Made by a program: the position numbers and the translations under genes. The notes below the pieces were generated by a model, which was given only the letters and a program-made list of their open reading frames with translations, made no database searches and was not told the DNA's origin. A stretch of DNA of 64,000 nucleotides from an uncultured Gammaproteobacteria bacterium (GTDB taxonomy: Bacteria > Patescibacteriota > Patescibacteriia > UBA2591 > UBA6264): contig CAZQVF010000005.1 of NCBI GenBank assembly GCA_964596735.1, positions 13,328-77,327 of the forward strand, read 5' to 3'. Numbering within the stretch: position 1 is the stretch's first letter; each line of letters opens with the position of its first letter. Shown here piece by piece: positions 17,232 through 20,981 of this stretch.

Positions 17232-17265
17232 ATATTCTTAGTTAATTGGTTATTTACTGTTAGTA

Positions 17266-17420
17266 TAAGAACCTGCTTCGCAGAACCTTGAAATTAAATT
17301 CTATTATATATAAATTAAGGTAATTTAATTATAAGAACCTGCTTCGCAGAACCTACCTGCCGGCAGGCAGGCCTTGAAATTAAATTCTATTGTATAAATA
17401 ATAATGTATTTTAATTATAA
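17266..17420 (+). promoter_or_regulatory. Tandem pair of the dispersed promoter-like repeat (copies 4a at 17266-17332 and 4b at 17333-17420)
   Basis: Two head-to-tail copies with TTGAAA at 17288-17293 and 17374-17379. Copy 4b carries a 20-nt insertion containing the perfect palindrome cctgccggcagg (17356-17367). Both point toward the 3' end of the minus-strand RT gene. Confidence 0.6.
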
Positions 17421-17464: not shown

Positions 17465-18442
17465 TTATTCTACTAAACCTACTTTCTTTCTAAATTTATA
17501 CGTATTTCCGTGAATCAATAGTCCTTGATAAGAAATAACTGTCTGTCGTTTTGGATAATTCTTTAATCTTCTAATTATCTTTCGCTTTGTGGTTGTTCGA
17601 ATCTGTCGATAGCATGGAAAATGTATCCAGCCCAAAAAATCTAAACCCGAAGCATAAGTTCTAATACAAACCTTGTGTTGATGAAGTGTCAATTTAAGTT
17701 CTTTTTGTAAAAATTCAGTGATTCTTAACAATAAACCATTGAGATACTCTTTATTGTCCGATAAAATAACGAAATCGTCGCCATATCTAATATAATATTT
17801 CACTCGCAATTCCTGTTTTATATACATATCAAATTCGTGCATATAAACATTAACGAAAAGTTGGGAAGTGAGGTTGCCAAGGGGCAGACCTATCCCCAAA
17901 CGGCTGGAATAAAAACTAAAAACTACCCTTTCAATCAACCGAATAATTTGAGAATCGTTAATGTGTCTCTTTAATATTTTAATAAGGATTTGCTGATCAA
18001 TGTTAGCAAAAAATTTCTGAATATCGCATTTTAGAATATAACAAGTTTGAGAATTATTTTTTGATACCTTCTGGGCAAAATATCTGAATCTGTTCAAAGC
18101 GCGATGCACTCCCTTGTTTTCTCTACACGAATATACATCATAAATAAACTTTCTATCAAAATAAGGACACAGCTCCTTATAAATGAGATGATGTAATAAC
18201 CGATCACGCACCGTAGCTTTGTGAATATTTCTCGGCTTGGGGTCAGAAATATTAAAAGCCGAATATGGTCCGTGAATATAAGTAAAATTAACCAGAGACT
18301 TATAAAGATCTATTAAATTATCGGCCAGCTTTATTTGAAAAATCATCACATCTTTTTTATGTCTTTTACCACACAAAAAACGCTCCCAAGTCGCTAAGAG
18401 ATTTTCTATCTTAATAATATCAATATATTTAACTTTAAACAT
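17465..18442 (-). CDS. DGR-type reverse transcriptase
   Basis: RT motifs: PRNIHKATVRDRLLHH, ILKCDIQKFFANID, IGLPLGNLTSQLFVNVYM (DGR-typical LGxxxSQ), IRYGDDFVIL (YxDD) and LDFLGW. Start taken at MFKVKYIDI (18442). The ORF could extend to 18511. Confidence 0.9.
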   Translation of the reverse strand: MFKVKYIDIIKIENLLATWERFLCGKRHKKDVMIFQIKLADNLIDLYKSLVNFTYIHGPYSAFNISDPKPRNIHKATVRDRLLHHLIYKELCPYFDRKFIYDVYSCRENKGVHRALNRFRYFAQKVSKNNSQTCYILKCDIQKFFANIDQQILIKILKRHINDSQIIRLIERVVFSFYSSRLGIGLPLGNLTSQLFVNVYMHEFDMYIKQELRVKYYIRYGDDFVILSDNKEYLNGLLLRITEFLQKELKLTLHQHKVCIRTYASGLDFLGWIHFPCYRQIRTTTKRKIIRRLKNYPKRQTVISYQGLLIHGNTYKFRKKVGLVE

Positions 18443-18820
18443 ATGACTACAATATCTGCGCGAGTACCATTGGTGCTTGTTAGAACAAAAAGGGCTTATC
18501 AAATTTGGCACAAAAATTTAGTCAATCTTAATCGACTTGATCGCTATACTATTGGTGCTAAAATCGATGAATATTTTCTATCTTTATTGGAATTAATTTT
18601 TAAGGCCTGTTTTGCTTACGATAAATTTGAAAAACTCTCAATGGTATCACAAGCGATTGGTAAAAACGATTTATTAAAATTCTTTTTACAGATTGGTTGG
18701 GAACAAAAAACCATTAACCATAAAAATTATGGTCTTCTAATACTTTTACTTGATGAAGTTGGTCGAATGCTGGGTGGCTGGAAAAAAAATATACAAGAAA
18801 AAACTCCCGCTAGTAAGTAG
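18443..18820 (+). CDS. avd: Avd-like four-helix-bundle accessory protein, on the strand opposite to RT/TR/VR
   Basis: 125-aa helical protein: RAYQIWHKNLVNLNRLDRYTIGAKIDEYFLSLLELIF...LLKFFLQIGWEQK...LLDEVGRMLGGWKK. It resembles the four-helix-bundle family that includes DGR Avd. Its ATG abuts the RT start (cat|atg at 18440-18445). Confidence 0.75.
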   Translation: MTTISARVPLVLVRTKRAYQIWHKNLVNLNRLDRYTIGAKIDEYFLSLLELIFKACFAYDKFEKLSMVSQAIGKNDLLKFFLQIGWEQKTINHKNYGLLILLLDEVGRMLGGWKKNIQEKTPASK

Positions 18821-18840
18821 CAGGAGAAAAAATTAAATAA

Positions 18841-18960
18841 GTCACAGAAGCAGAGCAGGCAGTCGTTATCATCCCAAGCGTTCTCAAAGTTGCCGAGGTT
18901 GAAATTAAAGTCATCATCCGAGTTGCGGTTGACATTCGGCACGCGGTAGTTGCCGTCAGA
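18841..18960 (-). repeat. DGR template repeat (TR)
   Basis: 120 bp homologous to 19299-19418. Minus-sense reading is rich in AAY codons: SDGNYRVPNVNRNSDDDFNFNLGNFENAWDDNDCLLCFCD. Contains 28 adenines in the minus sense. Confidence 0.9.
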
Positions 18961-19200
18961 CAATGTACAGCCCGCCACCTTTTTCACTAAGGGTAACGCC
19001 AGTCGCCCTCTGTATTTTATTCTGAGCCAAAATGCTCAATAGCACGCTGCACCGACTGATTTAATTTTTTCATAAAAGGTTGCACTCATTTACTAAGCAT
19101 GCCCAGTAAATTCCTGGCAAACTCCCTTTACGAGAATTCGATGATATAAAGCCATGGCCACATATCCAATCTATTATCCAAAAATATTATACAGAAAAAA

Positions 19201-19238
19201 TACATAAAAGAAAAGGGTCCTTACATTGGTAAGAACCC
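19201..19238 (-). terminator. Rho-independent terminator of the DGR target gene
   Basis: Minus-strand reading: gggttcttac-caat-gtaaggaccc followed by ttttctttt. It lies between VR and TR. Confidence 0.6.
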
Positions 19239-19289
19239 AAAGGGTCAAAAAATCCAAAGAACAGGACTAAGAAACCAAGTGCCTAAGCA

Positions 19290-19949
19290 CTAATCGCAGT
19301 CGCAGAAGCAGAGCAGGCAGTCGCTATCATCCCAAGCGTCCTCAAAGGGGCCGAGGAAGAAAATAAAGTCACCAACCGAGTAGCGGTCGACAGACGGCAC
19401 GCGGTAGCTGCCGTCAGAATCGATCCAGAGAGCCTCTTTCTCATCAAACGAGACAGACCAACGGCTCTTTGGCAACTTGTTTTTGGCAAGTTCATAGACC
19501 AGTGAAGCGCCTTGAGCGCCGGCTAAAACAGCTTTCTGAGAATACAGGAAATTTAAACAGTCTTCCGAAGTCACAGTTTCTGTGATATTAAAAACCTTTA
19601 CCTTGAACTTTCTGCCAGGCACGAGCTTTGTTGTCGCTTTGTTAAAGTGCTTATCAGTGATGTCGGAATTGTAGTAATTAAATTCCGAGCCATGCGCTGC
19701 TGCAAAGTCAGTCAAGCGCGTAGCATGGTCGTAACCCTTAGGCACAACAATGTTAAACGCATTGGCCAATTTGAAGCGCGGGTCAGGCATAAACGGTGAA
19801 AGAGCTTGCTGACGTTGTTTCTGTGTCAGATTTAAAAAACATTCATATTCTGGCAAACTCATTTGCCCTTTCTTGATCTTCTGATTGCAATCCATATGCA
19901 GACCAGCCAATTTGGCCGCTTCTGCGCCGATAGATGTCTTATCCATCAT
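19290..19949 (-). CDS. DGR variable (target) protein, unknown family, C-terminal VR
   Basis: ORF ends ...WIDSDGSYRVPSVDRYSVGDFIFFLGPFEDAWDDSDCLLCFCDCD*, with the VR covering the last 40 full codons before CD*. Start at ATG 19949 is preceded by AAGGAG; the ORF track start at 19997 is the alternative. No N-terminal hydrophobic signal is seen. Confidence 0.85.
   Translation of the reverse strand: MMDKTSIGAEAAKLAGLHMDCNQKIKKGQMSLPEYECFLNLTQKQRQQALSPFMPDPRFKLANAFNIVVPKGYDHATRLTDFAAAHGSEFNYYNSDITDKHFNKATTKLVPGRKFKVKVFNITETVTSEDCLNFLYSQKAVLAGAQGASLVYELAKNKLPKSRWSVSFDEKEALWIDSDGSYRVPSVDRYSVGDFIFFLGPFEDAWDDSDCLLCFCDCD
19299..19418 (-). repeat. DGR variable repeat (VR)
   Basis: Base-by-base alignment to the TR gives 15 mismatches. 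14 fall at TR adenines (minus sense) and 1 is a T>C in the invariant GC-rich 3' end. Confidence 0.9.
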
Positions 19950-20015
19950 TTTCTCCTTTGATACCAAGAGTTTAATAATTGACCCCATGCCAATCATTTT
20001 CTCAGTATTGATAAT

Positions 20016-20044: not shown

Positions 20045-20092
20045 CACTCCTATTCCAAAAGACTTAAAATTTATATTAATCTAAAATAAAAA

Positions 20093-20160
20093 CACCGCCG
20101 AGGAGAATCGAACTCCTGAGACGGATTTGCCTTTAGCGGAAAACCTGGCGTCCTACAATG
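20093..20160 (-). pseudogene. Decayed tRNA-Glu-like pseudogene (3' two-thirds)
   Basis: Minus-strand reading: aggac-g-ccagg-ttttc... (D-stem 3' half, anticodon-stem 5' half, and the start of a UUC-type loop, as in the intact tRNA-Glu). Disrupted sequence follows. An intact T-arm aggag-ttcgatt-ctcct and acceptor 3' strand cggcggt-g complete it. No matching 5' acceptor strand was found. Confidence 0.6.
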
Positions 20161-20176
20161 CTTAATAAATTAAAAT

Positions 20177-20198
20177 GGCCCCGAGGAGAATTGAGTGA
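20177..20198 (-). pseudogene. Second short tRNA 3'-end remnant directly after the LAGLIDADG-like ORF
   Basis: Minus-strand reading: cactcAATTCTCCTCGGggcca. It shares the 11-nt core ATTCTCCTCGG with the remnant at 20098-20108. Confidence 0.45.
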
Positions 20199-20201
20199 AA
20201 A

Positions 20202-20891
20202 TTATTTTAATCCACTTTGTAATTTTAACGCGTCAATCCATCCTTTAATTCGAAAAGCTATCTTACGACCATGTACACGTAAATCAAGTGTGCCATATGG
20301 CAAAGAATTGATTGGACGTTTTCTGTTGCTCGCTTTGCTTATTTGTTTAAAAATGCGAAAACGACTTTTAGGAATATTAGTTACTCTAGCCCAAAAATTA
20401 ATGGCAGATTGCTCGCTAATATTAGCATGTATTCTAACACATACTTTTAATTTCTCTTCAGGGACTTTAATAATTTCTCGTAAAAAGCGAAGAAACAACG
20501 CAATCATATAAGGATCAGCATTAACAAAATCAACTACATACCCTTTGTTTTTTTGAGCCTCAATTTTATATCCCTCTGCCCAATAAAGAGCATTTGCAAC
20601 TAATAATAACTCATATTTTGACAACGAATGAATTTCATTAAAAGTCTCCTTCTTTATTCTCTGATTTTCAATCCAAATAGCACGTGTCCGTTGCCGATTG
20701 TTTTCAAATAACCCATGTTCTCGAGCAATTCTCGTTTTTTTTTCTAAAAGCTTTTTTGCTGACTTTGTTAGTTTTAAGTCTCTAAACCAAACGCTAAGCG
20801 AGCCCTTGGAAACACTTAAAGTACGAGCTATTTCATTGTAACTTTTACCCTTTAACCGCAACCTGAGCGCTTTTTGATATTGTGGATGCAT
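20202..20891 (-). CDS. LAGLIDADG-like homing endonuclease with N-terminal HTH
   Basis: HTH GKSYNEIARTLSVSKGSLSVWFRDL, then LLLVANALYWAEGYK ... VDFVNADPYMIALFLRFLRE ... YGTLDLRV. Start moved to ATG 20891 because the longer ORF overlaps tRNA-Glu. Confidence 0.65.
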   Translation of the reverse strand: MHPQYQKALRLRLKGKSYNEIARTLSVSKGSLSVWFRDLKLTKSAKKLLEKKTRIAREHGLFENNRQRTRAIWIENQRIKKETFNEIHSLSKYELLLVANALYWAEGYKIEAQKNKGYVVDFVNADPYMIALFLRFLREIIKVPEEKLKVCVRIHANISEQSAINFWARVTNIPKSRFRIFKQISKASNRKRPINSLPYGTLDLRVHGRKIAFRIKGWIDALKLQSGLK

Positions 20892-20909
20892 AATAATTAA
20901 ATATATAAG

Positions 20910-20981
20910 TAGCGCCAAGGGGAATCGAACCCCTGTTACATGGTTGAAAACCATGTGTCCTGACCACTAGACGATGGCGCC
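20910..20981 (-). tRNA. tRNA-Glu (UUC)
   Basis: Manual cloverleaf: acceptor ggcgcca/tggcgct, D stem gtct/ggac, anticodon stem catgg/ccatg with loop ttTTCaa, T arm agggg-ttcgatt-cccct. Confidence 0.88.

Follow-up and report, generated by a model that had tools for sequence, protein, structure and literature searches.

A diversity-generating retroelement with an inverted avd gene in a Patescibacteria-type cassette: a known architecture and a candidate autonomous template RNA

The stretch of DNA analysed here (the window; 64,000 nt, contig CAZQVF010000005.1, 13,328-77,327, assembly GCA_964596735.1; all coordinates are window positions) carries a diversity-generating retroelement (DGR). Its reverse transcriptase (RT) gene, template repeat (TR), variable repeat (VR) and target gene lie on the minus strand, and its avd gene lies on the plus strand between TR and RT. 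An original prediction made for this locus had presented the arrangement as odd. The question that it raises is where the template RNA begins and ends when the place held by a structured spacer in the element of Bordetella phage BPP-1 is filled by antisense avd. The inverted layout was found to be the published architecture of related elements, and a comparison of relatives points to a template RNA that would be bounded by its own promoter and terminator, with most of its conserved structure 5' of TR.

Clade-wide inversion of avd

The locus is a DGR whose parts are homologous to those of the Bordetella phage element. The RT carries LGNLTSQ at residue 188 and YGDD at residue 220, in agreement with the DGR-clade patterns [ILV]GxxxSQ and YxDD, and its best solved relative is the BPP-1 RT, bRT (8ub7_A, E 5.9e-40). 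Read in the minus sense, the mismatches between TR and VR place an A in TR against another base in VR at 14 of 15 positions, an adenine bias that is a DGR signature. VR forms the 3' end of the target open reading frame (ORF) and ends 8 nt before its stop codon; family searches of this ORF (19290..19997), Pfam included, returned no match. The short hairpin directly after VR (19278..19291) keeps its position in the alignment of relatives and, by pattern and place, is the counterpart of the inverted repeat that follows the initiation of mutagenic homing (IMH) element.

The plus-strand ORF is a genuine Avd homolog, basic and four-helical as expected of this protein. It matched Pfam bAvd (PF22296) at 47.5 bits against a cut-off of 40 and NCBIfam DivGenRetAVD at 52.6 bits, under the cut-off of 80, and 366 homologs were collected. 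The AlphaFold model (pLDDT 89.4) is a four-helix bundle, and the closest PDB entries are those of BPP-1 Avd (8ub7_B and 4dwl, TM 0.78-0.90). Single-sequence and profile searches of the protein against solved structures returned no match, and the link to BPP-1 Avd consists of the Pfam assignment and the fold comparison.

Related cassettes were gathered with an RT scan of one genome per species, which yielded 80 loci, almost all of them in metagenome-assembled genomes (MAGs) of Patescibacteria. An Avd profile detected avd in 76 of these loci. A comparison with related DGRs from the candidate phyla radiation (CPR) had been suggested along with the original prediction, and its outcome was clear: avd lies opposite to the RT strand and directly upstream of RT in 73 of the 76, and shares the RT strand only in three non-CPR loci, the most distant of the set (RT identity 37-39%). 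Just past the avd stop codon, 66 loci have an adenine-biased TR (median gap 17 nt), and VR is found farther upstream on the RT strand in 63. The window locus itself occurs in 3 further public assemblies, where it is base-for-base identical. The claim that avd is inverted relative to RT, TR, VR and target is thus borne out by the coordinates, by Pfam bAvd and by the relatives, and the inversion is a clade-wide inherited feature of CPR/Patescibacteria DGRs.

The oddness attributed to this arrangement did not hold. The order TR-(avd)-RT was described as architecture B3 by Wu et al. 2018 (NAR 46:11, PMC5758913), who found it in "90% of the CPR set"; because the layout is published, the feature that had been flagged was already known. 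The same authors noted that split-strand cassettes require at least two transcription units and that co-transcription of TR and RT is not obligatory (PMC5758913). The window cassette has the B3 order, with avd as its sole accessory gene, encoded on the reverse strand. It shares with the B3 DGRs of CPR and DPANN genomes the order and orientation of TR, avd and RT, the host group and a VR-bearing target upstream on the RT strand, and its layout shows no difference from theirs. The layout in itself changes nothing and should not count as an anomaly. The CPR DGR set is reportedly that of Paul et al. 2017.

The BPP-1 element has the order mtd-avd-TR-Sp-brt (Handa et al. 2018, PMC6182149; cryo-EM structure 8UB7, bioRxiv 10.1101/2023.10.23.563531). 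There, avd and TR share a strand, with avd upstream, and TR is followed by a structured spacer (Sp) of 140 nt, Rfam RT-10, which runs into brt. In the window, by contrast, avd is inverted and lies downstream of TR, the conserved RNA after TR is only about 45 nt long, and a covarying domain of some 220 nt comes before TR. The interval from the end of TR to the RT start measures 397 nt, of which 378 nt are antisense avd; the estimate had been about 398 nt, mainly antisense avd, with the end of TR set at 18841 and not at 18840, a trivial difference. As had also been claimed, antisense avd fills the place of the BPP-1 spacer. A spacer of the BPP-1 type, about 140 nt long, was not found, the space being antisense avd that gives no RT-10 match.

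A candidate template RNA and its boundaries

A terminator-like element was located by pattern just past TR. It consists of a hairpin of 9 bp (5 of them GC) with a 5-nt loop, which lies 13 nt after TR, carries the avd stop codon in its 5' arm and is followed by UUUUUUCUU; a GC-containing hairpin with a U-run is the pattern of an intrinsic terminator. In 49 of 64 cassettes, a hairpin after TR (median 9 bp, about 11 nt past TR) is followed by at least five T within 8 nt. The distance from TR to the hairpin is fixed while the avd stop codon floats: of the 64 cassettes, 37 have it within the hairpin, 15 beyond and 12 before. The U-run trails the hairpin even in relatives where the hairpin is intergenic, and the most distant subclade has an A-run on one side of the hairpin and a U-run on the other, in the manner of a bidirectional terminator. 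The element is a candidate for a terminator-like 3' end of the TR RNA, for an Avd-binding stem-loop, or for both.

Constraint on the antisense strand of avd was assessed at the codon level as normalised synonymous entropy, using amino acids conserved among 28 close relatives. The entropy was 0.75-0.91 along the gene and dropped at two places only. One is formed by the last three conserved codons, Lys-Thr-Pro (0.23, 0.00 and 0.00), whose other strand reads GGGAGUUUU, which on the minus strand is the 3' arm of the hairpin together with the U-run. The other consists of Pro codons at the extreme 5' end, at the position of a homopolymer in the relatives. Structure prediction for the antisense-avd RNA (18803..18443), likewise suggested beforehand, gave an unremarkable fold (z = -1.0 against shuffles, 19 of 100 shuffles being as good). 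The free synonymous sites and the unremarkable fold indicate that antisense avd holds no conserved spacer, and by these sequence measures the roughly 350 nt between the hairpin and RT are without a conserved RNA element. This argues against antisense avd as a spacer of the TR RNA, which most likely ends before avd, at the terminator-like hairpin. Of the two options offered in the original prediction, separate transcription of TR and RT is better supported, and a TR RNA bearing antisense avd is not favoured.

The conserved structure lies on the other side of TR. The non-coding gap between VR and TR is 337 nt in the window and near-constant across the clade (mostly 340-370 nt), and no conserved small ORF was found in it across the relatives. 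Covariation was measured in a MAFFT alignment of 27 cassettes, with slid partners as controls. The leader of about 220 nt contains seven helices that are 92-99% paired; overall, 91.8% of cells are paired, against 38-47% in the slid controls, and both sides have changed in 44 of 67 pairs. The leader was modelled with two covariance models, R2 for module A and R1 for module B. Helices 2-4 of module A are 94-99% paired with many compensatory changes, and R2 scored 83.8 bits in the window and matched 33 related loci, mainly in the closer subclade. R1 matched exactly once per locus in 60 related loci and in the window, always on the RT strand and ending at TR. These matches include distant cassettes outside the set from which the model was built, and the three loci with same-strand avd gave zero. 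In module B, 95.3% of cells are paired and 26 of 26 pairs are compensatory (slid controls 32-56%), as counted on an alignment fitted to the model itself, which tempers these figures. A search of Rfam with 18400-19320, at the gathering score and at E up to 10, returned no family, RT-10 included. The leader (18960-19180, minus strand) is put forward as a candidate for a new RNA family specific to B3-type DGRs. A further covarying hairpin lies in the relatives at the place equivalent to the terminator-like hairpin after the target gene (19205..19238).

Hexamers resembling a -10 box pile up 111-130 nt upstream of module B: across 58 loci, 46 fall within the two 10-nt bins of this interval and 1-12 in each of the other bins, and many of them are TGn-extended. 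A long-range duplex (19071..19054 with 18843..18826) appears in both the minimum free energy (MFE) and the centroid folds. Cognate arms give -7.3 kcal/mol and non-cognate arms -5.4 kcal/mol, and none of 5000 permutations was as good (0/5000). A pairing of AAGUCG with CGACUU into TR, proposed by RNAalifold, was discarded, being without compensatory change. An 86-aa ORF on the minus strand (18727-18987) spans TR and the hairpin; it exists only by virtue of TR keeping the reading frame of VR, and is very likely not a gene.

In our judgement the locus is probably an ordinary B3 DGR with an autonomous TR RNA of about 385 nt, to which RT and Avd would be supplied in trans. The template RNA would form a transcription unit of its own on the minus strand, from about 19179 to about 18795, starting after the -10 box and running through the covarying leader of about 220 nt and TR to the hairpin and U-run over the avd stop codon, while the A-rich/U-rich long-range duplex would bracket module B and TR. 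The RNA that positions RT and Avd would then lie mainly 5' of TR, with the 5' domain in the role of the BPP-1 3' spacer. By analogy with the BPP-1 cryo-EM structure, the hairpin after TR may be the equivalent of the Avd-binding stem-loop, and the bracketing duplex that of the cPRT Stop duplex. In 207 of 278 DGRs, CPR elements included, Handa et al. (bioRxiv 10.1101/2023.10.23.563531) predicted Avd-binding stem-loops of 9 bp just past TR, and upstream/downstream duplexes.

The inverted avd would be transcribed separately. Hexamers resembling a -10 box are concentrated 11-40 nt before the junction of avd and RT (68 in three 10-nt bins over 51 loci; at most 8 in other bins), and the first 30 RT codons show lowered synonymous variation; conservation of the RT protein confounds both signals. 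With that reservation, avd is probably transcribed as a nearly leaderless mRNA, with a predicted start near 18436, from a promoter within the first ten or so RT codons, at codons 5-10. The RT mRNA would come either from transcripts that read through the hairpin or from a weak promoter lying within avd.

Several observations weigh against an autonomous TR RNA with separately expressed proteins, apart from the fitted alignment of module B. The promoter and terminator of the TR RNA are pattern matches, and the U-run coincides in some loci with Lys-rich C-terminal codons of avd. Covariation of the long-range duplex is weak, with 76% pairing in the MAFFT alignment. Covarying pairing of the leader with the 3' end of TR was also sought, and the search returned only the known helices and no priming site. 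As to current activity, the VRs are identical in the four assemblies of the window locus. On the side of RT, no RT-sense -10-like hexamer is present in the 200 nt before the window gene, no convincing RT promoter was seen in 18443-18840, and the window RT has no Shine-Dalgarno sequence; with neither promoter nor Shine-Dalgarno sequence, read-through from the TR promoter is a live route to RT expression.

That route underlies an account to which we give less credence and which we regard as doubtful, namely that the hairpin stops most of the transcripts begun at the TR promoter and the minority that read through it are the RT mRNA, with convergent avd transcription modulating the read-through. 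It fits all of the structural evidence for the autonomous RNA, a single promoter would set a high ratio of RNA to RT, and both the lack of an RT-sense hexamer before the window RT and an avd synonymous profile without a conserved promoter signal are in its favour. It is opposed by the 20 or so of 51 relatives in which a -10-like hexamer 1-20 nt ahead of the RT ATG suggests that RT has its own leaderless mRNA, and by the full complementarity that a read-through RNA would have to avd mRNA.

Co-transcription on the BPP-1 pattern is still less probable, and we consider it unlikely. The TR RNA would here continue through antisense avd, acting as a spacer that primes and positions cDNA synthesis, into RT, and the hairpin would serve in Avd binding only. 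BPP-1, with its contiguous TR, spacer and brt, offers the precedent; no strong RT promoter is seen in the window, intrinsic terminators leak, and hairpins after TR are Avd-binding elements according to Handa et al. (bioRxiv 10.1101/2023.10.23.563531). The synonymous sites of avd, which are free outside the codons of the hairpin and U-run and of the 5' homopolymer, nevertheless leave no conserved element of sequence or structure in the next 350 nt. The fold of antisense avd at z = -1.0, the U-run that follows the hairpin even where it is intergenic, the large covarying domain on the opposite side of TR and the unmatched RT-10 model also count against this account.

An artefact, either an inversion of avd in the assembly or a plus-strand ORF that is not Avd with a same-strand avd elsewhere, can be dismissed almost outright: no support for it was found, the same orientation recurs in 73 independent species-level assemblies and 3 more of this locus, the ORF is identified as Avd by Pfam, structure and 366 homologs, and the layout is published as B3.

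Start codons and the avd-RT junction

The RT start was assigned from homologs. The top RT homologs are mostly 323-330 aa long, and of 29 whose N-termini were read, 27 start with M-F/L-x-x-K-Y at the position of the ATG at 18442. A GTG at 18511, to which the original prediction had allowed RT to be extended, would add 23 aa that have no counterpart in the homologs, and is not supported. The closest Avd homologs have the same 125-aa form and an equivalent ATG start.

The two start codons adjoin as cat/atg, as predicted. The statement that no intergenic space remains between them is correct for the window and fails as a peculiarity of it, since it describes the whole clade, in which the avd and RT starts share 12 nt (ATGnnnnnnCAT), adjoin directly, or are separated by at most a few tens of nt. 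In many relatives the 12-nt overlap reads ATG-nnn-nnn-CAT; His4 of RT, invariably a CAT codon (18 of 18), supplies the ATG of avd on the opposite strand, and vice versa. The 'conserved' N-terminus of Avd, M-S/T-E/K-H, is the mirror of the RT N-terminus M-F-x-H, with RT codons 1-4 being ATG TTy nnn CAT. Gene callers run on identical DNA (L100-L104) gave Avd lengths of 114-136 aa.

A simple repeat occupies the avd-RT junction in 49 of 73 related cassettes, against only 2 in the remaining 540 kb of flanking sequence that was fetched. The repeats are G8-G16 in about 40 cassettes, (GA)n in 8 and (GT)n in one, with G on the RT strand and Pro-Pro-Pro in avd; in these relatives the stretch lying 10-25 nt upstream of the ATG consists of G alone. 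Examples are L093:1440-1500, L091, L106:1430-1500 and L107, with (GA)n in L029, L032 and L046, and further cases in L009 and L098 ((GT)n). Of 43 cassettes whose C-run is 7 or longer, 32 have a sole upstream ATG that, read across the run, is not in the frame of the Avd core, and in some cassettes with a C-run the interval from run to core is without ATG, GTG or TTG. Eight of nine short contigs with one RT (L081-L089) end inside the G-run.

Tract length differs between strains. L106 (G10) and L107 (G11) differ at this site alone in 2,936 nt, and L091 and L092 have G10 where L093 has G11, the 18 remaining differences among these three all falling in VR. In such G10/G11 pairs one length gives an in-frame Avd (136 or 131 aa) and the other breaks the frame. 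The window has no simple repeat anywhere, its junction at 18440-18445 included, and junctions without a tract, that of the window among them, are invariant between assemblies.

Phase-variable repeats are familiar from the poly-C tracts of Bordetella fim promoters and the poly-G tracts of contingency genes in Neisseria or Campylobacter. The relatives, though not the window, resemble these systems in having a tract between divergent genes where a one-base change in length shifts the Avd frame. In the relatives the change in length was seen between assemblies. The junction tract looks like a contingency (phase-variation) tract controlling Avd, with poly-G sequencing problems or transcriptional or ribosomal slippage as alternative explanations. 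No literature linking DGRs to repeat-mediated switching tracts was found.

L091-L093 represent one related strain in three samples; their 18 differences are confined to the VR region (513-604), and the sequences are otherwise identical apart from the G-run. These VR differences point directly to DGR diversification that is still under way in that relative.

A broader proposal can be made only tentatively, and we incline slightly against it: B3 DGRs may differ from the Bordetella model in having an autonomous TR RNA of about 385 nt with a 5' domain and an avd-RT junction that acts as a control point through a frame-shifting tract, the window junction then being a fixed switch. In the accessible literature, Paul et al. 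2017 excepted, no published description was found of the 5' structured leader, of the promoter and terminator that frame TR, of the abutting or overlapping start codons or of the junction tract.

Feature coordinates, flanking sequence and implications

Table 1. Features of the DGR cassette, in window coordinates
Feature	Position	Strand	Basis or remark
DGR target gene, 235 aa, no Pfam hit	19290..19997	-	ORF list; 3' end is VR
VR	19298..19418	-	121-nt direct repeat of TR, 88% identity
Short hairpin (5 bp, 4-nt loop) directly after VR and stop codon	19278..19291	-	Pattern scan
Terminator-like hairpin (10 bp, 19238..19215) and T-run after target gene	19205..19238	-	Pattern scan
-10-like hexamer TATAAT, candidate TR RNA promoter, predicted start ~19179	19186..19191	-	Positional pile-up in relatives
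Leader hairpin H1	19144..19165	-	8 pairs, both sides changed in 7; 91.7% paired cells
Leader module A, long interrupted stem-loop	19070..19144	-	RNAalifold and pair counts
Leader module B, three-way junction adjoining 5' end of TR	18960..19070	-	Covariance model R1, 108 bits
A-rich upstream arm of putative long-range duplex closing module B and TR	19054..19071	-	17/18 complementary to 18826-18843
TR	18840..18960	-	Direct repeat of VR; mismatches biased to TR adenines
U-rich downstream arm of putative long-range duplex	18826..18843	-	Complementarity, folds
9-bp hairpin (18826..18804) and U-run (18803..18795)	18795..18826	-	Pattern scan; contains avd stop codon
avd, 125 aa, pI 9.8 (9.78)	18443..18820	+	Pfam bAvd; opposite strand to rest of cassette
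Junction cat/atg: RT ATG 18442..18440 (-) abuts avd ATG 18443..18445 (+)	18440..18445	both	Sequence
Two -10-like hexamers, AATAAT 18413-18418 and TATATT 18424-18429, candidate avd promoter	18413..18429	+	Inside RT codons 5-10
DGR RT, 325 aa	17465..18442	-	RVT_1 76.9 bits; LGNLTSQ; YGDD

Repeats were noted on both sides of the cassette. Just upstream of the DGR target gene lie two partial copies of the 3' half of tRNA-Glu, at 20073-20118 and 20167-20194, which are 76-79% identical and include the T-arm (GGAGAATCGAACTCC). The intact tRNA-Glu is at 20909-20981 on the minus strand, and a 250-aa ORF containing a helix-turn-helix (HTH) motif (20202..20954) lies between the partial copies and the intact gene. 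The partial copies may be att-like remnants of integration at the tRNA. On the other side, between the RT stop codon and a glutaredoxin gene, 17255-17420 holds imperfect direct repeats 66-86 nt long, two to three in number. Each repeat contains the palindrome CTGCTTCGCAG and, after it on the minus strand, a tail rich in T, which together are terminator-like in form (17350-17338 and 17284-17272), and the GC palindrome CCTGCCGGCAGGCAGG also falls within this region.

To our knowledge, mechanistic understanding of cDNA priming in DGRs comes entirely from one phage element, in which the essential RNA lies 3' of TR. In the largest bacterial radiation, the commonest DGR layout leaves no space for a 3' RNA of the BPP-1 type. 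A covarying 5' domain set between a candidate promoter and a candidate terminator would define an RNA of about 385 nt and would make priming in B3 elements directly testable with the cognate RT and Avd. If the junction tract of the relatives switches within populations, it would be a way to turn hypermutation on and off.

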